A DNA stretch of 64,000 bases from Escherichia coli (GCF_044647545.1 NZ_CP172818.1); one strand, 5' to 3'. Shown: positions 1 through 41,962, numbered from the stretch's first letter. Program-made: numbers and translations. Notes: generated from the letters alone by a model not told the origin.

Positions 1-615
1 GTTGCAACCGTGCCCCTTTTTACCCTGTGCTTCAGCCGCCTGTTTGGCATTAAAACGCGCAAACTGGAATGGGTGGGTATCGCCATTGGGCTTGCCGGAA
101 TCATCATGCTCAATAGCGGTGGAAACTTAAGCGGCAATCCATGGGGCGCGATTCTGATTTTAATCGGCTCGATTAGCTGGGCGTTTGGCTCAGTTTATGG
201 CTCGCGCATTACCTTACCTGTAGGGATGATGGCGGGTGCGATTGAGATGCTGGCGGCAGGCGTGGTGTTAATGATCGCGTCGATGATTGCGGGTGAAAAA
301 CTGACGGCGCTTCCTTCCCTTTCAGGCTTCCTTGCGGTCGGCTATCTGGCGCTGTTTGGTTCGATTATCGCCATCAACGCTTATATGTATTTAATCCGTA
401 ATGTCAGTCCGGCTCTCGCCACCAGCTACGCTTACGTTAACCCGGTGGTCGCGGTCTTGCTGGGTACGGGACTGGGCGGAGAGACGTTGTCGAAGATTGA
501 ATGGCTGGCGCTCGGCGTAATTGTCTTCGCGGTGGTACTGGTCACGTTGGGAAAATATCTCTTTCCGGCAAAACCCGTAGTTGCGCCAGTTATTCAGGAC
601 GCATCAAGCGAGTAA
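1..615 (+). CDS. eamA: EamA/DMT-family transporter, C-terminal part (gene starts upstream of window)
   Basis: ORF 10..615 is a polytopic hydrophobic protein; lies directly upstream of vsr-dcm as yedA does in E. coli. Confidence 0.65.
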   Translation, partial: VATVPLFTLCFSRLFGIKTRKLEWVGIAIGLAGIIMLNSGGNLSGNPWGAILILIGSISWAFGSVYGSRITLPVGMMAGAIEMLAAGVVLMIASMIAGEKLTALPSLSGFLAVGYLALFGSIIAINAYMYLIRNVSPALATSYAYVNPVVAVLLGTGLGGETLSKIEWLALGVIVFAVVLVTLGKYLFPAKPVVAPVIQDASSE

Positions 616-1074
616 ATGTATCCCCTGCGTGTCGATCTGCGCGCTGGCACCTTCGCCGCAGATCCACTCTTCCAGACGCTCGGTAAGCGCTTCATCCGTC
701 AGCTTCTCGCGCCCACGTAACGCGCACTCCCAGACAATCAATACGCGCCAGCCGAGTTCCTGCAAGCGACTGATATCGCGGCGATCGCGCTCAACATTTT
801 TACCTATCTTCTCCAGCCAGAACTCGGTTCGAGTCGCAGGCACTTTAAACAGATAGCAGTGATGATGATGCCAGAAGCAGCCATGGGTAAATATCACGCA
901 GCGATATTCATCAACGGCAAAATCCGGGCGTCCGGGCAGACTGGCGTCCTGAACGCGAAACGCAAGGCCCTGCCCAGTTAACAAACTGGCGAGGCGCTTC
1001 TCAATCGCCGTATCACGCGTGGCAATCGCGCGCATATTTTTGCTGCGGGTGGCCTTATCGTGAACGTCGACCAT
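604..1074 (-). CDS. vsr: Very-short-patch repair endonuclease Vsr
   Basis: Translation from internal start [21 protein letters not shown]...[10 protein letters not shown] matches Vsr; 5' end overlaps dcm 3' end. Confidence 0.85.
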
Positions 1075-2473
1075 GTTGTGCCTCTTGCTGACGCAACGCC
1101 ACCGCCTGTTTGATTTTTGGCTCAAGCAGTTTTGCCACCGCGGCAAAGACCGGCACGACCACCGAGTTACCGAACTGGCGATAAGCCTGAGTGTCCGAAA
1201 CCGGAATGCGGAATTTCGCTTCTCCCGGCGCTTCAAAACCCATTAAGCGCGCGCATTCCCGAGGCGTTAACCGACGTGGACGATGTTGCTGATTCAGCGG
1301 ATCGTCAAAGTCTTTTTCACCCGTGGCCATATCCCAGCCGCGATCGATTAAAATTTCCGCGCCATCTTTGTAATAACGCGCAGACAGCGTACGCGTGACG
1401 CTTTGCGGATTGTTCGGATAAACCATTCCATAACCGAAGCCATTACCGCGCGCCTGATGTTTTTTCGCATAACGATAGAGGTACTTCCACAGCACCGGCG
1501 TCAGGATATATTTCGCCTCGACCATCGGGTCCAGCAGCTGGGCCAGCGTCACTCGCTGCGCAGGGAAACATTCACTGATATCACGCAGGGTAAAATCGGC
1601 TTTCAGATTCAGATCGCGACGAAAACCCACCAGCACGATGCGTTCACGGTGCTGCGGCAGGAAATGTTTGCCATCGATGATTTTCGGATCGTCCGGCCCG
1701 TTATCTTCTGCATCAGCCACGTCATAGCCCAGTTCGTCCAGCGTCTGCATGATGATGCGGAACGTTTTACCCTGGTCGTGACTTTTCAGGTTTTTGACGT
1801 TTTCGAGCACAAACATCGCCGGACGACGCGCGTCGATAATGCGCACCACATCAAAGAACAGCGTGCCCTGGGTATCGCAGGCAAAACCGTGCGCCCGCCC
1901 GAGCGAGTTCTTTTTCGATACGCCAGCCAGCGAAAATGGCTGACAAGGAAAACCGGCCAGTAATACATCGTGTTCAGGAATGTGTTGACGAATATGTTCC
2001 GCCGCCGCCTCATCACTCACGCCTTCTTGATGGCTGAGGGTGATGTCGCGGATATCTTCATTAAAATGATGCGTCGCCGGGTCGCAATAATGATTGGCTT
2101 TATAAGTGCGTACCGCATGTTTGTTCCATTCGCTGGTAAACACGCACTGTCCACCAATCGATTCAAAACCGCGACGGATGCCGCCAATTCCGGCAAATAG
2201 ATCGATAAAGCGAAACGCATAATGCGGATGATGTGCCGGTGGTTTGGGTAACAACGTTTGCAGATGGGCGAACTCTTTCTCACTTAAACGGTGCCATGCC
2301 GAGTCATTCGCCAGTGCACGTTTTAAAATTGCCGCGCTCCAGTGATTCTCACCCACACCATTAAGCTGCGCCACCAGCGTTTTAACATCATAAATTTGCA
2401 GCAGTTTCTCCAGCATTGCCTGAACGGCATTCCCGGTGCTGTATGAATCGGTTACTGATATATTTTCCTGCAT
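1055..2473 (-). CDS. dcm: DNA-cytosine C5 methyltransferase Dcm
   Basis: 472-aa ORF with C5-MTase motifs ([17 protein letters not shown]); overlaps vsr. Confidence 0.9.
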
Positions 2474-2539
2474 AGATTTAACCGGCCATCTGAGATGGCC
2501 GACAGGTTAACATAATTACAGCCATTTAGGGCCACGCGC

Positions 2540-3235
2540 TCAGCCCGCGGGTGAAAACGCATCTATCACCTTGTGATCGACACCTTCATTCTCCCCCGCC
2601 AGTTCGGCACTGAGCTTCGCCATAAACTCGACTAAAAATTGCGCGTTGTGCTGCGCCAGCTGCTTGCCTCTTGCGGTTTGCATGGTTTGCGGTAATTTCA
2701 GTAACTTTGTCTGGAAATGATCCAGCGCGTAGCGTTTATCATCAAGCGGGCGATGCTGTGCGAACGGATCTTCGCCATCAAACAGCGCCACGCCCAATGC
2801 CCCTGAAACGGCAAACACGCGCGCCAGGCCAATCGCCCCCAGGGCTTCCAGCCGATCCGCATCCTGGACGATTTTAGCTTCCGTTGTTAAGGGGGCGATT
2901 TGCGCGCTGAAACTGTGAGCGGCAATGGCATGACAAACGGCCTCAATTTTCTCCGCCGGAAATTGCACGAACTCTTCACGGAGCAGGCGACGCGTCTCTT
3001 CTGCCGCCAGGATTGAAGAACGCTGCCGTTGCGGATGATTTTTCGCCAGGCTCACAATATCGTGAAAATAACAGGCGGTTAAAATCACCAGCATATCGAC
3101 GTCATCATCTGCCGCCAGCTTCTGTGCCGTAGCCCAGACGCGGCGAAAATGACACACGTCATGGGCCGCGTCCTGGTGCTGATGATGGTTTTTCAACCAG
3201 TTTTCGAACTCTGCCTGCCAGTGTTGTAAGTCCAT
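2540..3235 (-). CDS. yedJ: HD-domain phosphohydrolase
   Basis: 231-aa ORF with HD motif region (CYFHDIV); position matches yedJ. Confidence 0.7.
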
Positions 3236-3274
3236 ACGCGCTCCGTTGCCAAAGAGTCGCCACCTTAGCAGTTT

Positions 3275-3658
3275 TTATTCATAGCGTCTGCTACGTGCGG
3301 GACGAGGTCGGGTGTACCAGGCAATGCTGCCTAACAATGCCCCGACCAGAGCCATAAATAAAAATCCGACCAGTGCCCCTAACCACTTTCCCGCGGTAGA
3401 GCCTAAATCGCTTTCAAATCCCGACACGGGGGCATCGGGGATCCGGCTCATCACCCAGATGTAACGCGCCATTGCCCAGACGAAATAGCCACACCATGTA
3501 TAGAAAGCCCACAAAGCCAGTTTGCCACCAGGGCTGCGAGAGAGTCTCTCTTCCATCTTTGTCGAACCGTATTCCATTTTGAGATAACCCGGAAAATTCA
3601 GACTTAGTACTATTATGTGATAAAAATCACATTTTTCCACATTGAATGAGCCAGTCAA
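3275..3658 (-). CDS. yedR: Small inner-membrane protein; start codon uncertain (internal MEYGSTK start possible)
   Basis: 127-aa ORF with two hydrophobic segments; position matches yedR. Confidence 0.5.
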   Translation of the reverse strand: MTGSFNVEKCDFYHIIVLSLNFPGYLKMEYGSTKMEERLSRSPGGKLALWAFYTWCGYFVWAMARYIWVMSRIPDAPVSGFESDLGSTAGKWLGALVGFLFMALVGALLGSIAWYTRPRPARSRRYE

Positions 3659-3870
3659 GACTCAATCATTTTTTGAACAAATAGATAATTTTTGCGCAAC
3701 GGCAGTGAATACAAGAAAAATCGTTTTGAGCGATTTTATTTATCTTTGATATCGGCTTTATTAATTCATTCAATCAATATATTAGCACTGATTACAATTA
3801 TACCTTTTTATTATTCTGTGTCATGATGCCTCCGTTATTAGCCTTTTATCGTCTTGTTTATATTTTTTGG

Positions 3871-3896
3871 GCCGGCATGATGCCGGCTTTTTTTTA
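3871..3896 (+). terminator. Orphan intrinsic-terminator-like hairpin (GCCGGCAT-GA-TGCCGGC plus T8)
   Basis: Perfect 7-bp GC stem followed by T-run on plus strand; no plus-strand gene upstream. Confidence 0.4.
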
Positions 3897-4054
3897 TGCC
3901 TTCATTAATGTGCGCGTGATCACACCAGCCGTTTAGCGCAACGATCATTGATACTCCCTATCTTTCAGTTCAACTCATAACTTATTGATATACATTTATA
4001 ATCTTCATGAATGTTTATATTCAGAATTCATAATCCTGAATTATATTAAATAGA

Positions 4055-4105
4055 TTAGAAACATTTTGAAATCTTTTAAATACATTTGTTACATGTAATC
4101 CTTAA
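4055..4105 (+). promoter_or_regulatory. OmpR-box-like repeats in porin promoter region
   Basis: gaaacattttgaaatc / tacatttgttacatgt resemble the ompC/ompF OmpR-binding TTTACATTTTGAAACAT motifs; about 100-150 bp upstream of porin start. Confidence 0.3.
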
Positions 4106-4206
4106 AATAAAATGAACTTCATAGAATAGTATCCAAATGTGCTTTTTTTTGGATAACGGCACTTATTGATATATTCATGAAGATTATAATCACAAGGGAA
4201 TACATA

Positions 4207-5322
4207 ATGAAAAGAAAAGTTCTGGCAATGCTGGTCCCGGCGTTATTAGTTGCTGGCGCAGCAAATGCGGCTGAAATTTATAATAAAGATGGCAATAAAG
4301 TTGATTTCTACGGCAAGATGGTTGGCGAACGCATCTGGTCAAATACTGATGATAATAACAGCGAAAACGAAGATACCTCCTATGCTCGTTTCGGTGTTAA
4401 AGGTGAAACCCAAATCACCAGCGAACTGACTGGTTTTGGTCAGTTTGAATACAACCTCGACGCCAGCAAGCCCGAAGGTGAAAACCAGGAAAAAACCCGT
4501 TTAACCTTCGCCGGTTTGAAATATAACGAGTTAGGATCATTTGACTATGGCCGTAACTACGGTGTTGCTTATGATGCCGCAGCTTATACCGATATGTTAG
4601 TTGAATGGGGTGGCGATTCCTGGGCTTCCGCTGACAACTTCATGAATGGTCGTACCAACGGTGTTGCAACCTACCGTAACTATGATTTCTTTGGCCTGGT
4701 TGATGGTCTTGATTTTGCGATTCAGTACCAAGGCAAAAACAGCAACCGTAGCACTAAGAAACAAAATGGTGACGGCTATGCGTTGTCTGTAGACTATAAC
4801 ATCAATGGTTTTGGTATCGTTGGTGCATATAGCAAATCTGATCGCACCAACGATCAAGTTGCCGATGGAAACGGTTCAAATGCTGAACTGTGGTCATTGG
4901 CTGCAAAGTATGACGCGAACAATGTCTACGCAGCTGTAATGTACGGCGAAACTCGTAATATGACTCCGGGTTCTATTGATACAGGTGTTGCCGATCGAGA
5001 AGGCAATACAATAATGCGTGATCAACTTATCAATGAAACCCAGAACTTTGAAGCGGTTGTTCAGTATCAATTCGACTTTGGTCTGCGTCCGTCCTTAGGT
5101 TATGTGTACTCTAAAGGTAAAGATATCAAAGGGGTACCTGGACATAGATATGTTGACGCTGACCGTGTGAACTACATTGAAGTTGGTACCTGGTACTACT
5201 TTAATAAGAACATGAACGTTTATACTGCATACAAATTCAACATGCTGGATAAAGATGACGCCGCCATTACTGGCGCAGCAGCTGATGACCAGTTTGCAGT
5301 TGGTATCGTCTACCAGTTCTAA
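4207..5322 (+). CDS. yedS: OmpC-family general porin (intact here)
   Basis: ORF with signal peptide [31 protein letters not shown] start of mature porin, C-terminal ...VGIVYQF; track ORF starts 30 nt upstream. Confidence 0.8.
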
Positions 5323-5365
5323 TCAGCCAACTCGCTGCGGCGTGTTACTGTAAAACTTAACACTA

Positions 5366-5402
5366 GCCTGAGTTCGTCCCTCATCGAACTCAGGCTTTTT
5401 TA
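5366..5402 (+). terminator. Rho-independent terminator downstream of porin gene
   Basis: GCCTGAGTTCG-tccctca-CGAACTCAGGC perfect 11-bp stem followed by TTTTTTATT. Confidence 0.7.
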
Positions 5403-5913
5403 TTGGCATTTCATCTCCATCTGCGGCACACGCAATTGCCGAAGCATATCGATACAGCACCTTACCCTGCCCCTCCTGGCACAATAACATCAACCAGCTA
5501 CTCTTCAAGCTAACACCCAAATGCATTTCTTTATGAATTAATCCGTAACAAACACGCTTCCCATATAGAAATATTTGCAAAAATAGTGCATGAAATAAGC
5601 TTTTTCTCTACCAATCCGCGATATAAATATTCATCAGCACCACAATATTCCACAGCACTAAATCTCTCCCCGCCACCCCGTACCTCTGATAATGGTCTAA
5701 AATCATTGAGGCCACTTGCGACGACGTTACTCAATAAGGAAAATTTGGCGTGAATAATATTCAACACCAGTGCAGCATCATCATTACATACTTACACCCG
5801 CCGACTACCGCTTTCGATATATTGACTCAATTTTCCAGCCTGGTTAAAAATAGCGACCAGCTCAGTCGCAAATATAGTGACTACCCTAACTAAGCAACAA
5901 TAAGGAATACACT

Positions 5914-6765
5914 ATGACTGTTCAAACAAGTAAAAATCCGCAGGTCGATATTGCTGAAGATAATGCATTCTTCCCTTCAGAATATTCGCTTAGCCAATAT
6001 ACCAGTCCTGTCTCTGATCTTGATGGCGTGGACTATCCAAAACCGTATCGCGGTAAACATAAAATTCTGGTGATCGCCGCGGACGAACGTTATTTGCCGA
6101 CCGATAACGGAAAACTGTTCTCGACCGGTAACCATCCGATTGAAACGTTGCTGCCGTTGTATCATCTCCATGCTGCAGGTTTCGAATTCGAAGTGGCGAC
6201 CATTTCCGGCCTGTTGACCAAGTTTGAATACTGGGCTATGCCGCACAAAGATGAAAAAGTAATGCCATTCTTTGAGCAGCATAAATCGTTGTTCCGCAAT
6301 CCGAAGAAACTCGCGGATGTTGTCGCCAGCCTCAACGCTGATAGCGAATATGCAGCAATCTTTGTTCCTGGTGGTCATGGCGCACTTATTGGTTTACCTG
6401 AAAGCCAGGACGTAGCTGCCGCTTTACAGTGGGCAATCAAAAATGACCGTTTTGTTATCTCCCTTTGCCACGGCCCGGCGGCTTTTCTGGCGCTTCGCCA
6501 CGGCGATAACCCACTGAATGGTTATTCCATTTGCGCATTCCCAGACGCCGCAGACAAACAAACGCCAGAGATAGGCTATATGCCGGGTCATCTCACCTGG
6601 TACTTCGGCGAAGAGCTGAAGAAAATGGGCATGAACATTATTAATGACGACATCACCGGGCGAGTACATAAGGACCGTAAAGTTCTCACCGGCGACAGTC
6701 CTTTCGCAGCGAATGCGTTGGGTAAACTGGCGGCGCAGGAAATGCTGGCAGCTTACGCGGGTTAA
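5914..6765 (+). CDS. hchA: Hsp31 glyoxalase/chaperone (DJ-1/PfpI family)
   Basis: 283-aa ORF MTVQTSKNPQVDIAEDNAFFPSEYSLSQYTSPVSDLDGVDYPKPYRGKHKILVIAADE... matches HchA. Confidence 0.85.
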   Translation: MTVQTSKNPQVDIAEDNAFFPSEYSLSQYTSPVSDLDGVDYPKPYRGKHKILVIAADERYLPTDNGKLFSTGNHPIETLLPLYHLHAAGFEFEVATISGLLTKFEYWAMPHKDEKVMPFFEQHKSLFRNPKKLADVVASLNADSEYAAIFVPGGHGALIGLPESQDVAAALQWAIKNDRFVISLCHGPAAFLALRHGDNPLNGYSICAFPDAADKQTPEIGYMPGHLTWYFGEELKKMGMNIINDDITGRVHKDRKVLTGDSPFAANALGKLAAQEMLAAYAG

Positions 6766-6872
6766 TCCCTGTTACGTTTTAATGTAAGCGCATAATCAAT
6801 CGCAGCCGCGTTAGTATTCACGACGTGGCTGCGTTTTTTCACGGTTAATTTATGGCGTACTGAAGCCCTATG

Positions 6873-8231
6873 TTAATTTCTTTGCGGCAACGTAATCCGG
6901 AACACATTATGCTTATTGAGATAGTGATACGTAGCACTTCCCCCATGTAATTCGGCAATCGCTTTGACTAAAGAAAGGCCTAGTCCCTGACCTACGGAAT
7001 GACGCGAATTATCTCCCCGCCAAAATCTACGGAAGAGTTTTTCAGGCTCATTAATTTTCGTTCCAGGGCTGGCGATATCAATATTAATAGATCCGTTGGT
7101 ATCAAGAAAACTGGTTATATGAATACGCGATTTTTCTGGTGAATATCTAATGGCATTAACAATAAGATTCGATAACATTCGTTGCAGTAAAATTTTATCC
7201 GCAAAGATTTGCTGATTGCACTCGACATTAAAGCAAATCTCTTTCTCGTCTGAAAGATATTCAAGATAGTCCAACAAATTTTCGACTTCCTTATTGAGAG
7301 AAAGCGAGTCCAGTTTCACCAAAACATTGTTTTTATCTGCCCTGGCAAGAAACAGTATGTTCTCTGTTAACCGCGAAATATTTTCCAGCTCTTCAATGTT
7401 ACCGGCAATTGTTTTTTGATATTCAGCGATACTTCTGGTTTGACTGAGCGTAACCTGATTCTGACCCAGTAATGCATTAATTGGCGTTCTAAGTTCATGA
7501 GCGAGATCGTCAGCAAACTGACTTAGACGCTCAAAATCTTTGACTAAAGCATGATGCATTTTATTCAACGCCTGCCCAAGAGGTTTTAGTTCTCTCGGTA
7601 ATGTGCTAACCTCAACAGGCTCCCGGCTATCGTTATAATTCAGCGCTTCCGTTACACCACTCAACTTTTTGATCTCTCGTAACCCCGTTCGGATTAACAG
7701 CGGACTTAATACTGAGCACAGTATAATGGCGACAATGCAAATTATAATGCTATTGATTTTATACTGTTCAAGCATGTTATGTCTGGCTGAAGCCAATTTA
7801 GCCACAGTAACCGTTAATGATGGCGAAACTTCATCAATATTAATTCGTAAAGCATCAATCTCAGTGTCATTAATAATGCTTCTGTAAATGCCAGCTGCGC
7901 TGATTGTCTCACTAGCAGGTATGTTATTTAACATGTCATCACTGACATTTGTCCGGTTAACAATTTTATTGATGCCATCACCATGAATGATCAAGATATC
8001 CTGGCTAACATCCATCATCCGGTTAAAGTATACAGGTAACGTATCTGGATTTACCCCATCAATTAACAACTGCTTGATCTGCGCTGTCCGGTTAATGAGT
8101 GTTGTATCATCGCGCCATTTCAACTCACTTGCCAGGCCATTATAGAGAGTCCAGACAATTCCAGCGCCAGCAACAGACAGCAGCAATATAAAAAGCAAGG
8201 TTAAACGGACGGTTATAGATAATCTTTTCAT
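6873..8231 (-). CDS. hprS: Two-component sensor histidine kinase
   Basis: 452-aa ORF with N-terminal TM, HAMP, H-box (LAHELRTPI) and ATPase G-boxes; adjacent to its response regulator. Confidence 0.8.
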   Translation of the reverse strand: MKRLSITVRLTLLFILLLSVAGAGIVWTLYNGLASELKWRDDTTLINRTAQIKQLLIDGVNPDTLPVYFNRMMDVSQDILIIHGDGINKIVNRTNVSDDMLNNIPASETISAAGIYRSIINDTEIDALRINIDEVSPSLTVTVAKLASARHNMLEQYKINSIIICIVAIILCSVLSPLLIRTGLREIKKLSGVTEALNYNDSREPVEVSTLPRELKPLGQALNKMHHALVKDFERLSQFADDLAHELRTPINALLGQNQVTLSQTRSIAEYQKTIAGNIEELENISRLTENILFLARADKNNVLVKLDSLSLNKEVENLLDYLEYLSDEKEICFNVECNQQIFADKILLQRMLSNLIVNAIRYSPEKSRIHITSFLDTNGSINIDIASPGTKINEPEKLFRRFWRGDNSRHSVGQGLGLSLVKAIAELHGGSATYHYLNKHNVFRITLPQRN

Positions 8232-8902
8232 TATTTTTTTACCGCTACGAATGAATAGCCCATCCCCCGGATTGTGGCGATTAGCTTTTCAGGAAAAGGA
8301 TCATCAACTTTTGCGCGGAGCCTGCGAATGGCGACGTCCACCGTATTGGTATCACTATCAAAGTTGATTCCCCAAATTTCACTCGCAATAACCGTTCTGG
8401 GTATAATTTCGCCTGCTCTGGAGGCCAGTAGCCAAAGTAACTGAAACTCCTTGCGCGTCAGTGTAATACTGATATTGTCCCTGCTCACACTTTGACTAAC
8501 AGAGTCCATTCTTAAGCCGCTGATTTCTAATGTTGAATTCAAAGCGTGATGTTGCCTTAATTGTGCCCGAACCCTTGCCAGCAACTCAGAAAATGAAAAA
8601 GGTTTTACCAGATAATCATTTGCTCCACTGTCCAACCCTCTGACTCTGTCATCGACAGAATCCCTTGCAGTAAGGCAAATAACAGGGGTTTGCTTTGCCG
8701 TTCTTAACGTTTGTAAGATCTGCCAGCCATCCATACCCGGAAGCATAATATCCAGAATGATCAATGCATAATCATCCTTCAGCGCAAGATAAAGCCCATC
8801 TCTGCCATCAGAAACGGCATCGATGACATAACCCGCTTCGGAAAGCCCCTGCGTTACCCACTCCTGGGTCCTTTGATTATCTTCAATAAGTAAAATCTTC
8901 AT
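8231..8902 (-). CDS. hprR: OmpR-family response regulator
   Basis: Internal start MKILLIEDNQRTQEW...; receiver plus winged-helix domains; track ORF has non-native N-terminal extension. Confidence 0.8.
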   Translation of the reverse strand: MKILLIEDNQRTQEWVTQGLSEAGYVIDAVSDGRDGLYLALKDDYALIILDIMLPGMDGWQILQTLRTAKQTPVICLTARDSVDDRVRGLDSGANDYLVKPFSFSELLARVRAQLRQHHALNSTLEISGLRMDSVSQSVSRDNISITLTRKEFQLLWLLASRAGEIIPRTVIASEIWGINFDSDTNTVDVAIRRLRAKVDDPFPEKLIATIRGMGYSFVAVKK

Positions 8903-9034
8903 GAAAATAATATGCCATAAATCATATGTTATAGAAACAGCCTGGTTCATTACAAAATTGTAATGCTGCTGTAAGGTTACCCTGGACGTTTTTTCGCTAT
9001 CCTCAAAACTCATTCACATGACAAGGATATAAAC

Positions 9035-9448
9035 ATGTTAAAGCGTTATTTAGTACTCTCGGTAGCAACGGCAGCATTTTCATTACCTTCTTTGGTTAAT
9101 GCCGCACAACAAAACATTCTTAGCGTGCACATTTTGAACCAGCAAACAGGAAAACCCGCTGCTGACGTGACAGTCACTCTTGAAAAGAAGGCGGATAACG
9201 GCTGGTTACAACTTAATACCGCCAAAACAGATAAGGATGGACGAATTAAGGCACTGTGGCCCGAGCAAACTGCAACTACGGGCGATTACCGTGTCGTATT
9301 TAAAACCGGGGACTATTTCAAGAAACAAAATCTTGAAAGTTTCTTCCCTGAGATCCCCGTTGAATTTCATATTAATAAAGTGAACGAGCATTATCATGTG
9401 CCTTTATTACTTAGCCAATATGGGTATTCAACCTATCGTGGCAGTTAA
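9035..9448 (+). CDS. hiuH: 5-hydroxyisourate hydrolase (transthyretin-like), periplasmic
   Basis: 137-aa ORF with signal peptide and C-terminal YRGS motif typical of HIU hydrolases. Confidence 0.8.
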
Positions 9449-9550
9449 TGCATAAATATGTAAAAGCAGATCTCTGCTACTGTTAGGGAGGACACTCCCT
9501 GACAGATTAACAGTAAACGGCTCTTGCTGGCTAACGACAAAAAAGTGTGA

Positions 9551-10561
<1,011 letters not shown>

Positions 10562-11197
10562 ATGCGTCTGACAGCAAAACAGGTGACATGGCTGAAAGTT
10601 TGCCTGCATCTTGCCGGATTGTTGCCGTTTCTCTGGCTGGCCTGGGCGATCAATCACGGTGGACTGGGTGCCGATCCGGTGAAAGATATTCAGCATTTTA
10701 CCGGTCGCACTGCACTGAAATTTTTGCTGGCGACCTTGTTAATCACACCTCTGGCACGCTACGCAAAACAGCCGTTATTGATACGCACTCGCCGCCTGTT
10801 AGGCTTATGGTGCTTTGCCTGGGCGACACTGCATTTAACCAGTTACGCATTGCTGGAGCTGGGCGTGAATAATCTGGCGTTATTAGGTAAGGAGTTAATT
10901 ACCCGGCCTTATTTAACGTTAGGTATTATCAGCTGGGTAATTTTGCTTGCGTTAGCGTTCACTTCAACCCAGGCGATGCAGCGAAAACTCGGCAAACACT
11001 GGCAACAGTTGCATAACTTCGTCTATCTTGTCGCGATCCTGGCCCCAATACATTATTTGTGGTCAGTGAAGATTATTTCACCGCAGCCACTCATCTACGC
11101 TGGGCTGGCGGTACTGCTTTTAGCCTTACGGTATAAGAAGTTGCTTTCCCTTTTCAACCAGTTACGCAAGCAGGTTCACAACAAATTATCTCTATAA
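10562..11197 (+). CDS. msrQ: Heme-binding membrane subunit of MsrPQ
   Basis: 211-aa polytopic ORF immediately downstream, start overlapping msrP stop. Confidence 0.85.
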
Positions 11198-11229
11198 CTT
11201 CATATTGCCAACAAAGTACGCGTTATCCC

Positions 11230-11261
11230 GGCCGGATGCGGCGCGAGCGCCCTATCCGGCC
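11230..11261. repeat. REP (repetitive extragenic palindromic) element
   Basis: GCCGGATGCGGCG...CCTATCCGGCC matches REP consensus. Confidence 0.6.
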
Positions 11262-11396
11262 CACACAGATCGCATCAAGTTATGTTTCGTTTGTCATCAA
11301 CCTTTCATCACCAGAATAATTTATTTTATTTCAATAAGATAGGAAAATACACCTGAGAAAACTATGCTCTCGTTTCCTAAGAGTTATTGCATTTCG

Positions 11397-11420
11397 CCAT
11401 ATGTTACAATATAACATTAT
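11397..11420 (+). promoter_or_regulatory. Zur-box-like palindrome in zinT promoter
   Basis: ATGTTACAATATAACAT resembles Zur consensus GAAATGTTATAWTATAACATTTC; about 35 bp upstream of zinT start. Confidence 0.5.
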
Positions 11421-11453
11421 ACATCATGTACATTAACTCTGGAGGAAACTGTT

Positions 11454-12104
11454 TTGGCGATTCGTCTTCATAAACTGGCTGTTGCTTTAGGCGTCTTTAT
11501 TGTTAGCGCTCCTGCCTTTTCGCATGGTCATCACTCACACGGCAAACCCTTAACAGAGGTCGAACAAAAAGCTGCTAATGGTGTTTTTGATGATACCAAT
11601 GTACAAAACCGAACGCTCAGTGACTGGGATGGAGTCTGGCAATCCGTTTATCCTTTACTGCAAAGTGGCAAACTTGACCCCGTCTTTCAGAAGAAAGCGG
11701 ATGCAGATAAAACCAAAACATTTGCTGAAATTAAAGATTATTATCGCAAAGGTTATGTGACAGATATCGAGATGATTGGCATTGAGGACGGCATTGTTGA
11801 ATTCCATAGACATAATGAAACAACATCCTGTAAATATGATTACGATGGATACAAAATACTCACCTATAAATCAGGCAAGAAAGGCGTTCGTTACTTATTC
11901 GAATGTAAAGATCCTGAAAGCAAAGCCCCTAAATATATTCAATTTAGCGATCATATAATTGCACCACGAAAATCATCTCATTTTCACATTTTTATGGGTA
12001 ATGATACCCAACAGTCTTTATTGAATGAAATGGAAAACTGGCCAACGTATTATCCATATCAGTTGAGTAGCAAAGAAGTGGTCGAGGAGATGATGTCTCA
12101 TTGA
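11454..12104 (+). CDS. zinT: Periplasmic zinc/cadmium-binding protein
   Basis: 216-aa ORF with signal peptide and His-rich HGHHSHG motif. Confidence 0.85.
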
Positions 12105-12191
12105 TTTTTTGCGCTGACTTCAATTATTTAACAGAACAGTGCCTGGTAGTAACGACAATAATTTACCAAGACAAATAAATAAGACAAACTC

Positions 12192-12225
12192 AGACACGCT
12201 CATGCTTGAGACGTGTCTTTTTTAT
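12192..12225 (+). terminator. Rho-independent terminator after zinT
   Basis: AGACACG...CGTGTCT hairpin followed by TTTTTTATT. Confidence 0.6.
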
Positions 12226-30770: not shown

Positions 30771-30846
30771 TCCTCTGTAGTTCAGTCGGTAGAACGGCGG
30801 ACTGTTAATCCGTATGTCACTGGTTCGAGTCCAGTCAGAGGAGCCA
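30771..30846 (+). tRNA. asnV: tRNA-Asn (GUU), canonical
   Basis: Exact 76-nt match to asnT sequence. Confidence 0.9.
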
Positions 30847-36254: not shown

Positions 36255-37160
36255 CTATATTTCCAGACATCTGTTATCACTTAACCCATTACAAGCCCGC
36301 TGCCGCAGATATTCCCGTGGCGAGCGATAACCCAGCGCACTATGCGGATGCCATTCGTTATAATGCTCGAACGCCTCTGCAAGGTTCTTTGCTGCCGTTA
36401 ACCCGTCTGGTTTGGGCATGATACTGATGTAGTCACGCTTTATCGTTTTCACGAAGCTCTCTGCTATTCCGTTACTCTCCGGACTCCGCACCGCCGTGTT
36501 CTTCGGTTCAAGTCCCAACATCCGGGCGAACTGGCGTGTTTCATTAGCCCGGTAGCATGAACCATTATCCGTCAGCCACTCCACTGGAGACGACGGAAGA
36601 TCGTTGCCGAAGCGGCGTTCCACCGCTCCCAGCATGACGTCCTGTACTGTTTCACTGTTGAAGCCGCCGGTAGTGACCGCCCAGTGCAGTGCCTCACGAT
36701 CACAGCAGTCCAGCGCGAACGTGACACGCAGTCTCTCTCCGTTATCACAGCAGAACTCGAACCCGTCAGAGCACCATCGCTGATTGCTTTCTTTCACGGC
36801 CACTCTGCCTGTATGTGCCCGTTTCGATGGCGGTACAGCAGGTTTTCGCTCAAGCAACAGCGCATTCTGGCGCATGATCCGGTAAACACGTTTGGCATTG
36901 ATCGCAGGCATACCATCAAGTTCTGCCTGTCTGCGAAGCAGCGCCCATACCCGACGATAACCATACGTTGGCAGCTCTCCGATAACATGGTGTATACGGA
37001 GAAGCACATCCGTATCATCAGTGTGACGACTGCGGCGGCCATCCATCCAGTCATCGGTTCGTCTGAGAATGACGTGCAACTGCGCACGCGACACCCGGAG
37101 ACAACGGCTGACTAAGCTTACTCCCCATCCCCGGGCAATAAGGGCGCGTGCGCTATCCAC
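36255..37160 (-). CDS. insD: IS2 transposase OrfB (DDE integrase domain)
   Basis: 301-aa [33 protein letters not shown]... matches InsD. Confidence 0.9.
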
Positions 37161-38609: not shown

Positions 38610-38818
38610 TAGAATAAAACGATCAATATCTATTTTATCGATCGTTTATATCGATCGATAAGCTAATAATAACCTTTGTCAGTAACATGCACAGATACGT
38701 ACAGAAAGACATTCAGGGAACAACAGAACCACAATTCAGAAACTCCCACAGCCGGACCTCCGGCACTGTAACCCTTTACCTGCCGGTATCCACGTTTGTG
38801 GGTACCGGCTTTTTTATT
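38610..38818 (+). ncRNA. isrC: Small RNA IsrC region (5' leader upstream of flu); boundaries approximate
   Basis: Position between yeeP and flu; ends at intrinsic terminator CCGGTATCCAC-gttt-GTGGGTACCGG plus T6 (38780..38818). Confidence 0.4.
38621..38656 (+). promoter_or_regulatory. Three GATC sites (Dam/OxyR phase-variation switch of Ag43)
   Basis: GATC at 38621, 38640 and 38653 within aacGATCaatatctattttatcGATCgtttatatcGATCgataag, about 200 bp upstream of flu. Confidence 0.75.
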
Positions 38819-38842
38819 CACCCTCAATCTAAGGAAAAGCTG

Positions 38843-41800
38843 ATGAAACGACATCTGAATACCTGCTACAGGCTGGTATGGAATCACATGACGGGCGCTT
38901 TCGTGGTTGCCTCCGAACTGGCCCGCGCACGGGGTAAACGTGGCGGTGTGGCGGTTGCACTGTCTCTTGCCGCAGTCACGTCACTCCCGGTGCTGGCTGC
39001 TGACATCGTTGTGCACCCGGGAGAAACCGTGAACGGCGGAACACTGGCAAATCATGACAACCAGATTGTCTTCGGTACGACCAACGGAATGACCATCAGT
39101 ACCGGGCTGGAGTATGGGCCGGATAACGAGGCCAATACCGGCGGGCAATGGGTACAGGATGGCGGAACAGCCAACAAAACGACTGTCACCAGTGGTGGTC
39201 TTCAGAGAGTGAACCCCGGTGGAAGTGTCTCAGACACGGTTATCAGTGCCGGAGGCGGACAGAGCCTTCAGGGACGGGCTGTGAACACCACGCTGAATGG
39301 TGGCGAACAGTGGATGCATGAGGGGGCGATAGCCACAGGAACCGTCATTAATGATAAGGGCTGGCAGGTCGTCAAGCCCGGTACAGTGGCAACGGATACC
39401 GTTGTTAATACCGGGGCGGAAGGGGGACCGGATGCAGAAAACGGTGATACCGGGCAGTTTGTTCGCGGGGATGCCGTACGCACAACCATCAATAAAAACG
39501 GTCGCCAGATTGTGAGAGCTGAAGGAACGGCAAATACCACTGTGGTTTATGCCGGCGGCGACCAGACTGTACATGGTCACGCACTGGATACCACGCTGAA
39601 TGGGGGATACCAGTATGTGCACAACGGCGGTACAGCGTCTGACACTGTTGTGAACAGTGACGGCTGGCAGATTGTCAAAAACGGGGGTGTGGCCGGGAAT
39701 ACCACCGTTAATCAGAAGGGCAGACTGCAGGTGGACGCCGGTGGTACAGCCACGAATGTCACCCTGAAGCAGGGCGGCGCACTGGTTACCAGTACGGCTG
39801 CAACCGTTACCGGCATAAACCGCCTGGGAGCATTCTCTGTTGTGGAGGGTAAAGCTGATAATGTCGTACTGGAAAATGGCGGACGCCTGGATGTGCTGAC
39901 CGGACACACAGCCACTAATACCCGCGTGGATGATGGCGGAACGCTGGATGTCCGCAACGGTGGCACCGCCACCACCGTATCCATGGGAAATGGCGGTGTA
40001 CTGCTGGCCGATTCCGGTGCCGCTGTCAGTGGTACCCGGAGCGACGGAAAGGCATTCAGTATCGGAGGCGGTCAGGCGGATGCCCTGATGCTGGAAAAAG
40101 GCAGTTCATTCACGCTGAACGCCGGTGATACGGCCACGGATACCACGGTAAATGGCGGACTGTTCACCGCCAGGGGCGGCACACTGGCGGGCACCACCAC
40201 GCTGAATAACGGCGCCATACTTACCCTTTCCGGGAAGACGGTGAACAACGATACCCTGACCATCCGTGAAGGCGATGCACTCCTGCAGGGAGGCTCTCTC
40301 ACCGGTAACGGCAGCGTGGAAAAATCAGGAAGTGGCACACTCACTGTCAGCAACACCACACTCACCCAGAAAGCCGTCAACCTGAATGAAGGCACGCTGA
40401 CGCTGAACGACAGTACCGTCACCACGGATGTCATTGCTCAGCGCGGTACAGCCCTGAAGCTGACCGGCAGCACTGTGCTGAACGGTGCCATTGACCCCAC
40501 GAATGTCACTCTCGCCTCCGGTGCCACCTGGAATATCCCCGATAACGCCACGGTGCAGTCGGTGGTGGATGACCTCAGCCATGCCGGACAGATTCATTTC
40601 ACCTCCACCCGCACAGGGAAGTTCGTACCGGCAACCCTGAAAGTGAAAAACCTGAACGGACAGAATGGCACCATCAGCCTGCGTGTACGCCCGGATATGG
40701 CACAGAACAATGCTGACAGACTGGTCATTGACGGCGGCAGGGCAACCGGAAAAACCATCCTGAACCTGGTGAACGCCGGCAACAGTGCGTCGGGGCTGGC
40801 GACCAGCGGTAAGGGTATTCAGGTGGTGGAAGCCATTAACGGTGCCACCACGGAGGAAGGGGCCTTTGTCCAGGGGAACAGGCTGCAGGCCGGTGCCTTT
40901 AACTACTCCCTCAACCGGGACAGTGATGAGAGCTGGTATCTGCGCAGTGAAAATGCTTATCGTGCAGAAGTCCCCCTGTATGCCTCCATGCTGACACAGG
41001 CAATGGACTATGACCGGATTGTGGCAGGCTCCCGCAGCCATCAGACCGGTGTAAATGGTGAAAACAACAGCGTCCGTCTCAGCATTCAGGGCGGTCATCT
41101 CGGTCACGATAACAATGGCGGTATTGCCCGTGGGGCCACGCCGGAAAGCAGCGGCAGCTATGGATTCGTCCGTCTGGAGGGTGACCTGATGAGAACAGAG
41201 GTTGCCGGTATGTCTGTGACCGCGGGGGTATATGGTGCTGCTGGCCATTCTTCCGTTGATGTTAAGGATGATGACGGCTCCCGTGCCGGCACGGTCCGGG
41301 ATGATGCCGGCAGCCTGGGCGGATACCTGAATCTGGTACACACGTCCTCCGGCCTGTGGGCTGACATTGTGGCACAGGGAACCCGCCACAGCATGAAAGC
41401 GTCATCGGACAATAACGACTTCCGCGCCCGGGGCTGGGGCTGGCTGGGCTCACTGGAAACCGGTCTGCCCTTCAGTATCACTGACAACCTGATGCTGGAG
41501 CCACAACTGCAGTATACCTGGCAGGGACTTTCCCTGGATGACGGTAAGGACAACGCCGGTTATGTGAAGTTCGGGCATGGCAGTGCACAACATGTGCGTG
41601 CCGGTTTCCGTCTGGGCAGCCACAACGATATGACCTTTGGCGAAGGCACCTCATCCCGTGCCCCCCTGCGTGACAGTGCAAAACACAGTGTGAGTGAATT
41701 ACCGGTGAACTGGTGGGTACAGCCTTCTGTTATCCGCACCTTCAGCTCCCGGGGAGATATGCGTGTGGGGACTTCCACTGCAGGCAGCGGGATGACGTTC

Positions 41801-41962
41801 TCTCCCTCACAGAATGGCACATCACTGGACCTGCAGGCCGGACTGGAAGCCCGTGTCCGGGAAAATATCACCCTGGGCGTTCAGGCCGGTTATGCCCACA
41901 GCGTCAGCGGCAGCAGCGCTGAAGGGTATAACGGTCAGGCCACACTGAATGTGACCTTCTGA
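38843..41962 (+). CDS. flu: Antigen 43 self-associating autotransporter adhesin
   Basis: 1039-aa ORF from MKRHLNTCYRLVWNHMTGAFVVASELARARG (extended signal peptide), beta-helical passenger repeats, C-terminal beta-barrel ending ...QATLNVTF. Confidence 0.9.
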   Translation: MKRHLNTCYRLVWNHMTGAFVVASELARARGKRGGVAVALSLAAVTSLPVLAADIVVHPGETVNGGTLANHDNQIVFGTTNGMTISTGLEYGPDNEANTGGQWVQDGGTANKTTVTSGGLQRVNPGGSVSDTVISAGGGQSLQGRAVNTTLNGGEQWMHEGAIATGTVINDKGWQVVKPGTVATDTVVNTGAEGGPDAENGDTGQFVRGDAVRTTINKNGRQIVRAEGTANTTVVYAGGDQTVHGHALDTTLNGGYQYVHNGGTASDTVVNSDGWQIVKNGGVAGNTTVNQKGRLQVDAGGTATNVTLKQGGALVTSTAATVTGINRLGAFSVVEGKADNVVLENGGRLDVLTGHTATNTRVDDGGTLDVRNGGTATTVSMGNGGVLLADSGAAVSGTRSDGKAFSIGGGQADALMLEKGSSFTLNAGDTATDTTVNGGLFTARGGTLAGTTTLNNGAILTLSGKTVNNDTLTIREGDALLQGGSLTGNGSVEKSGSGTLTVSNTTLTQKAVNLNEGTLTLNDSTVTTDVIAQRGTALKLTGSTVLNGAIDPTNVTLASGATWNIPDNATVQSVVDDLSHAGQIHFTSTRTGKFVPATLKVKNLNGQNGTISLRVRPDMAQNNADRLVIDGGRATGKTILNLVNAGNSASGLATSGKGIQVVEAINGATTEEGAFVQGNRLQAGAFNYSLNRDSDESWYLRSENAYRAEVPLYASMLTQAMDYDRIVAGSRSHQTGVNGENNSVRLSIQGGHLGHDNNGGIARGATPESSGSYGFVRLEGDLMRTEVAGMSVTAGVYGAAGHSSVDVKDDDGSRAGTVRDDAGSLGGYLNLVHTSSGLWADIVAQGTRHSMKASSDNNDFRARGWGWLGSLETGLPFSITDNLMLEPQLQYTWQGLSLDDGKDNAGYVKFGHGSAQHVRAGFRLGSHNDMTFGEGTSSRAPLRDSAKHSVSELPVNWWVQPSVIRTFSSRGDMRVGTSTAGSGMTFSPSQNGTSLDLQAGLEARVRENITLGVQAGYAHSVSGSSAEGYNGQATLNVTF

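Follow-up and report, generated by a model that had tools for sequence, protein, structure and literature searches.

The porin gene at 4207-5322 of the Escherichia coli DNA analysed here (64,000 nucleotides, hereafter the window) is likely a functional yedS, the putative positional orthologue of Salmonella ompS1, and its product is probably a quiescent diffusion porin of the OmpF/OmpK35 kind. The gene is intact, belongs to the general porins and lies in the gene order of the yedS locus; its pore residues and regulatory region are conserved, and it evolves under purifying selection.

ORF analysis of the plus strand returned one uninterrupted frame of 371 codons plus stop at 4207-5322. An in-frame ATG at 4177 is the formal start of the longest ORF, and RefSeq places the start of the identical gene at ATG 4207. 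The gene and its immediate signals comprise the following features.

4194-4199, plus strand: Shine-Dalgarno-like AAGGGA, 7 nt 5' of ATG 4207, by direct sequence reading.
4207-5322, plus strand: yedS (ompS1), coding for 371 aa and closed by a stop; the 371-aa form of allele class A, from the ORF, the Porin_1 match, RefSeq identity and dN/dS.
4207-4269, plus strand: signal peptide of 21 aa, identical across all 12 E. coli alleles compared.
5365-5401 (also delimited as 5365-5396), plus strand: strong intrinsic terminator of yedS, a 12-bp stem with 7 GC pairs followed by a T-run, identical in K-12.

The encoded protein is 100% identical to the RefSeq 'porin' WP_000824355.1, whose cluster at 90% identity holds 1321 sequences. 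It matches Pfam PF00267 (Porin_1) with 396.1 bits against a cut-off of 23.7 (E=2e-118), residues 27-371 spanning profile positions 1-337 of 337. Signal-peptide cleavage is placed after ANA, as mature PDB porin chains start aligning at residue 22; the mature N-terminus following this cleavable signal fits the porin pattern AE(I/V)YNKDGNK, and the chain ends in ...VGIVYQF, with the terminal aromatic Phe of the BAM beta-signal. The 371 codons, the 21-residue signal and the ...YQF end agree with the earlier note on this DNA, which had read an intact single ORF that begins with a signal peptide and ends in Phe.

The gene order dcm-yedJ-drpB-rseX-porin-hchA is that of the E. coli yedS locus, with the porin gene and drpB on opposite strands. 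The protein-coding neighbours of the porin in the window are as follows.

2540-3235, minus strand: yedJ.
3275-3556, minus strand: drpB/yedR.
5914-6765, plus strand: hchA.
6873-8231, minus strand: hprS.

At the corresponding locus of E. coli 13P477T, drpB (L005, 178-459) is annotated as a pseudogene with an internal stop, and yedS is intact there.

Positions 1-12227 of the window are 99.99% identical to E. coli FDAARGOS_497. At the tRNA-Asn gene at 13812-13887, that strain carries a yersiniabactin High Pathogenicity Island of ~31 kb (int, ybtS to fyuA), which is missing from the window; 3' of the tRNA gene the window runs on into a yeeJ-like region (noted to ~14500). An inverse-autotransporter adhesin of 1511 aa at 14126-18661 (plus strand), with IAT_beta and many Big_1 and Invasin_D3 repeats, is followed after a gap of ~400 bp by a 525-aa ORF with Big_1 and Invasin D3/D4 domains at 19059-20636 (plus strand). 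Together these look like a YeeJ-type gene split in two, and the YeeJ-type region of FDAARGOS_497 is annotated as a frameshifted pseudogene. Further tRNA-Asn (GTT) genes occur at 26532-26607, 28356-28431 and 30771-30846, all within 17 kb of the first; we take the tRNA-Asn genes of the window to be the known asnT/U/V/W cluster, used as island integration sites. The 1091-aa AIDA-type autotransporter at 38687-41962 (plus strand), with an ESPR signal, AIDA repeats, an autochaperone and a beta-domain, adjoins an IS3-family transposase-like ORF (rve, HTH_21) at 36255-37160 (minus strand), and probably represents an Antigen-43-like adhesin carried on the remnant of a prophage or mobile element.

Comparison with K-12 revealed both the expected lesions and a deeper difference. 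In MG1655, yedS (b4496) is annotated as a pseudogene, and in the K-12 strain BW2952 as 'frameshifted; internal stop'. When the K-12 gene was translated, codon 162 proved to be an amber and the frame to shift once, leaving three pieces, so that the multi-piece pseudogene described in the earlier note is confirmed. Both genes occupy the same position. Identity between them is 97-100% across ~400 bases that take in the upstream region and signal peptide, and equally high over the gene's last 20 bases and the terminator. The two do not differ in the closest ~200 bp of upstream sequence, in the 5'UTR, in the signal peptide or in the terminator, and are nearly identical in the remaining upstream sequence. 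In contrast, the part encoding the mature protein shows ~70% DNA identity and ~60% protein identity, with many indels. The K-12-type mature part carries a PEFGGD motif in loop L3, and its intact relatives are 392-404 aa long. In the alignment with K-12 yedS, which had been proposed as a check, the K-12 lesions are absent from the window, which carries another allele class, with a mature part of ~60% amino acid identity. Judged from the alignment, the window allele is not the K-12 gene repaired; it represents a separate allele class.

The description of the gene as an OmpC-family porin holds in the broad sense of a general porin. It does not extend to the OmpC subfamily itself (NF007841 of NCBIfam), for which the window protein scores 417.4 bits, below the cut-off of 484; it matches OmpF models and OmpK35 best. 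The best-scoring NCBIfam model was the OmpF equivalog NF007446 with 449.9 bits, below the cut-off of 583, and the PhoE equivalog NF007544 gave 414.4 bits, below the cut-off of 599. The closest solved structures are Klebsiella pneumoniae OmpK35 (486 bits, E=9e-145), K. aerogenes Omp35 and E. coli OmpF (399 bits). An AlphaFold (AF2) model of moderate confidence (pLDDT 70) has 16 strands, and its L3 spans residues 116-152 and includes a short helix; its best Foldseek match was again OmpK35 (TM 0.78/0.85).

The likeness to OmpK35 extends into the constriction loop, where both proteins have the motif LVEWGGD.

4588-4617, plus strand: core of constriction loop L3, residues 128-137, from alignments; OmpK35-like, against PEFGGD in OmpF, OmpC and K-12 yedS.

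The window protein also shares with OmpK35 and OmpF the basic cluster and the acidic residues of L3, but it is just 60-70% identical to them, has a longer loop L6 and is encoded at another locus. OmpC and OmpN belong to the same superfamily and have signal peptides nearly identical to that of the window protein, but their amino acid identity to it is 57-58%. Orthology of the window protein to OmpK35 or OmpF is ruled out by synteny: the window gene lies between drpB and hchA, not at the asnS-aspC locus of ompF. OmpK35 itself sits at pncB-asnS-porin-aspC, the ompF locus, and is therefore a paralogue.

An alignment of 29 porins disclosed that K37, R149 and D129 of the window protein are invariant and that R61, R98 and E133 are nearly so. 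These residues correspond to the basic cluster of OmpF (K16, R42, R82 and R132 equal K37, R61, R98 and R149) and to the acidic residues facing it (D113 and E117 equal D129 and E133). Retention of the acidic L3 residues and the opposing OmpF-type basic cluster suggests that the protein should act as a non-specific diffusion channel.

Nei-Gojobori estimates for the window gene gave dN/dS values of 0.07-0.17 in comparisons with orthologues and other alleles. The value was 0.12 for the 357-aa allele, 0.07 for Escherichia fergusonii and 0.08-0.12 for other genera. By region, dN/dS was 0.04-0.12 in the barrel, L3 and turns, and 0.16-0.28 in the surface loops. The low ratios indicate that yedS is kept functional by selection, with the exposed loops apparently under relaxed or diversifying pressure.

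The earlier note had presented the gene as intact here, but in the sampled genomes this is nothing special. We inspected 14 E. coli loci by annotation, most of them picked at even steps along a similarity ranking, and found yedS intact at 12, with lengths of 352, 357, 371, 387, 392, 393, 395, 397 or 404 aa. The two broken copies were those of K-12 and of an HS-like laboratory stock, in which IS3 truncates the gene. A 91-mer with the K-12 amber at its centre has exact matches in just 357 of 5426 complete genomes, and the nine genomes listed among them are laboratory or K-12-type strains, for example ER1709, RR1, AB1157, J53 and MC1061. In 892 of the 5426 genomes, matches covered at least 80% of the variable part of the window gene; among all genomes matching this part, 459 did so at 99% identity or more, and O25b:H4 strains stood at 99.0%. 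Intact yedS is the usual state in the E. coli strains sampled.

The ORF could nevertheless be intact by chance, in a gene that has lost its function or is decaying into a pseudogene like that of K-12. Loss of yedS is evidently tolerated, as K-12 and the HS-like stock have lost it, and 536 of the 5426 genomes (~10%) have no match at all. We consider decay highly improbable in view of the dN/dS of 0.04-0.12, the full set of pore-lining and folding motifs, the conserved regulatory region and the annotation of the window allele type, every copy of which among the matches listed is an intact 'porin'.

Mean pairwise identity among 12 E. coli alleles is 99-100% at 4106-4265 (the 5'UTR and signal peptide, also well conserved in E. 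fergusonii), 22-88% in the mature part and ~95% after the stop. Seven identity troughs, at 4346-79, 4460-96, 4737-68, 4846-83, 4964-5043, 5124-42 and 5260-93, coincide with the surface loops L1, L2, L4, L5, L6, L7 and L8 predicted from the AlphaFold model (pLDDT 70); L3 is comparatively conserved. The alleles fall into at least four classes, namely A (371 and 357 aa, the class of the window), B (352 aa), C (392-404 aa, the K-12 type) and D (387 aa). Within class A, the 371-aa and 357-aa forms are 90% identical, and between classes protein identity is 59-72%, the range that separates OmpC, OmpF, PhoE and OmpN. Some classes fall inside the OmpC subfamily of NCBIfam and others outside it: alleles of classes C and D reach 540 and 520 with the OmpC-subfamily model, compared with 591 for OmpN and 748 for OmpC, and both exceed the OmpC cut-off, which explains their RefSeq label 'ompC'. 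Allele segments (window 4300-5295) are mosaic even within one class, and the promoter-proximal region, 5'UTR, signal peptide and terminator are 99-100% identical in every class. Between E. coli alleles, dS reaches 0.50 within class A and 1.29 for class A versus B, far above what would be expected of core genes within a species.

We found no description of the depth of this polymorphism in the papers searched that mention yedS. As a tentative reading, to which we would give somewhat less than even weight, yedS may be among the most polymorphic chromosomal loci of E. coli, with ancient and possibly trans-species alleles kept by frequency-dependent selection (phages, colicins, antibody) and swapped as cassettes through the invariant flanks. 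If true, cassette swapping in invariant flanks would let YedS vary as a surface module while its regulatory circuit stays fixed.

The nearest relatives outside E. coli bear on where the window allele came from. They are found in E. fergusonii (85% aa identity), Citrobacter (75%), Enterobacter hormaechei (75%) and the K. oxytoca group (69%), and their genes directly follow (yedA-)vsr-(dcm-)yedJ(-drpB), which is the yedS position; the orthologues there are of the window allele type. As the nearest relatives occupy this position, the window class looks like a long-standing resident and the K-12 type like the divergent one. A different origin, which we regard as quite unlikely, would be a recent import of an OmpK35/OmpF-type gene from another genus, which displaced a K-12-type yedS through recombination within the conserved flanks. 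Such an event would fit the sharp boundaries between the near-identical flanks and a mature part of ~70% DNA identity, as well as the mosaic segments within alleles and the rank of Klebsiella OmpK35 as best solved match. It is difficult to reconcile with the location of OmpK35 at the ompF locus (pncB-asnS-porin-aspC) and with the position of the nearest relatives outside E. coli (69-85% aa), all at the yedS site; moreover, the best donor candidate is no closer than 85% aa, and dS to every other genus is saturated (1.3-1.8). The window type thus appears ancestral at the yedS position.

In E. fergusonii, a second porin gene (L029, 5663-6772) lies directly 3' of the yedS orthologue. It encodes 369 aa with an NmpC/PhoE-like signal peptide, is 63-65% identical to OmpC, OmpN and PhoE, and is followed by a TrkH-family gene and then hchA. 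This arrangement prompted the idea that the E. coli allele classes derive from a tandem pair of paralogues, of which different strains lost different members. The idea was rejected because the second E. fergusonii gene differs in its signal peptide and upstream region, and its identity to the E. coli yedS alleles compared is only 54-63%.

The region upstream of the window gene was examined for regulatory elements. Between drpB and yedS lie 548 bp with a GC content of 29.6%, compared with 49% for the window, in which we identified the following features.

3805-3894, plus strand: rseX sRNA gene, from Rfam RF01401 (99 bits, gathering score 50); MG1655 has it annotated at this position too.
3909-3924, unstranded: CRP-like palindrome TGTGC-GCGTGA-TCACA, by direct sequence reading.
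4047-4097, plus strand: OmpR-like tandem 10-bp half-sites, GAAACATTTT GAAATCTTTT AAATACATTT GTTACATGTA, from a position weight matrix (PWM), with four tandem units at 4058-4097.
4086-4113, plus strand: candidate sigma-70 promoter TTGTTA-16-TAAAAT, from a consensus scan, with 9/12 matches, no better than shuffles.

An Rfam scan of 3300-6000 returned rseX as its sole match and no known 5'UTR element. This Hfq-binding sRNA gene has its own terminator (3869-3889) and is co-directional with yedS, 312 nt 5' of the yedS ATG. Analogous sRNA-porin neighbours in K-12 are micF-ompC and micC-ompN; both pairs are divergent, unlike rseX-yedS. The CRP-like palindrome is situated in the rseX-yedS interval, with ~200 bp separating it from the candidate yedS promoter downstream. 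At its K-12 equivalent (coordinate 2033766), an in-vitro CRP footprint has been assigned to yedS in a 2026 Footprint-seq preprint (PMC12871828).

The PWM for OmpR was built from six K-12 ompF/ompC OmpR sites, each verified in the K-12 sequence. Of the 127,962 window positions scored with this six-site PWM, the OmpR-like site at 4058-4077 came 2nd, and the double sites took ranks 2 and 4. As the matrix is small and crude and rewards AT-rich DNA, the OmpR boxes are suggestive only. The candidate promoter at 4086-4113 is directly 3' of the OmpR-like units, and the 5'UTR predicted from it would measure ~85-95 nt.

Published work on this region and on its Salmonella counterpart points to silencing. 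In hns mutants, rseX 'and surrounding areas' are de-repressed (PMC8313858). Salmonella ompS1 encodes a quiescent porin that is repressed by H-NS and StpA, derepressed by LeuO and dependent on OmpR, with an AT-rich regulatory region (PMC4264507); the window likewise has an AT-rich upstream region with OmpR-like boxes. In K-12, 'yedS (ompS1)' is listed among the sigma-E-repressed porin genes, the two names being given as synonyms (PMC2731931). Orthology of the Salmonella gene to yedS is taken from this synonym in the literature, and its regulation would carry over to yedS by orthology. The sigma-E response of the K-12 yedS transcript suggests some activity of the promoter, whose sequence the window shares unchanged. 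The earlier note had held that a disrupted promoter would count against its reading; the promoter region is intact, identical to that of K-12 and sigma-E-responsive there.

An intact and strictly conserved promoter and 5'UTR, together with strong purifying selection, could also point to a constitutive, highly expressed third major porin that shapes permeability in ordinary growth like OmpC and OmpF. Consistent with this, provided that the protein maps to yedS, the outer-membrane proteome of a STEC strain contained a putative porin with 50% homology to K-12 YedS (PMC9731836). However, the upstream region of 30% GC lies in a domain reported to be H-NS-repressed (PMC8313858), the Salmonella orthologue is quiescent under laboratory conditions (PMC4264507), and the promoter match is weak, so that constitutive high expression appears unlikely to us. 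A quiescent YedS remains the reading that we prefer.

MarA-dependent control of YedS through MicF was reportedly described by Warner et al. in 2013. No pairing was found between the MicF 5' end and the ribosome-binding region of yedS: the energy was -7.7 kcal/mol, compared with -27.1 for ompF and a mean of -12.1 for controls, and was worse than that of 84% of the control translation initiation regions (TIRs). For RseX and MicC, too, pairing with the yedS start region did not exceed the background set by 45 control TIRs. A possible MicF target was instead located further downstream.

4287-4327, plus strand: candidate MicF pairing site, codons ~27-41, RNAduplex -21.9 kcal/mol with MicF nt 1-32; speculative.

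This match has a 12-bp contiguous core and falls in the 0.2% tail of 60-nt windows, and comparable coding-region matches occur in other allele classes. It is a lead rather than evidence, since many windows were tested and a match of this kind would arise by chance about once per ten genes of this size. A MicF site inside the yedS coding region is thus a weak candidate.

The connection with carbapenems that the earlier note had drawn was already in print. YedS of a carbapenem-resistant clinical E. coli isolate influences carbapenem susceptibility together with marR, according to the accounts of Warner 2013 (AAC 57:1935) given in PMC4048246 and PMC11267920. As described in these citing papers, that isolate resembles the window in having an intact, translatable yedS in a non-K-12 strain. 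It differs in that the MicF/MarA control reportedly found for it is unsupported by start-codon pairing in the window allele. With an intact and expressed clinical yedS and its carbapenem effect published, as far as these accounts convey, and the exact protein in RefSeq, the present finding is an ordinary and already known one.

What we infer on expression level, on control by H-NS, OmpR or MicF and on drug entry can be assembled into a working model. The product would be exported by its Sec signal peptide and inserted by BAM via the C-terminal ...YQF signal, to form a 16-strand barrel with its pore narrowed by L3; a trimer is assumed from the family. The channel would be OmpF/OmpK35-like, admitting small hydrophilic solutes including beta-lactams and carbapenems. 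The gene is expected to be silenced by H-NS over its 548-bp upstream region of 30% GC, and its transcription would probably depend on OmpR at the tandem boxes at ~4047-4097. If YedS is quiescent in this way, it would therefore contribute to permeability mainly upon de-repression or upon loss of OmpC and OmpF.

In strains that lose OmpC and OmpF under antibiotics, an intact YedS would be a remaining entry route for carbapenems, so that MICs can move with the amount of YedS made. At the yedS locus, K-12 serves poorly as a reference: with different porin subfamilies at one position, permeability, phage-receptor and antigenic properties are not transferable between strains.
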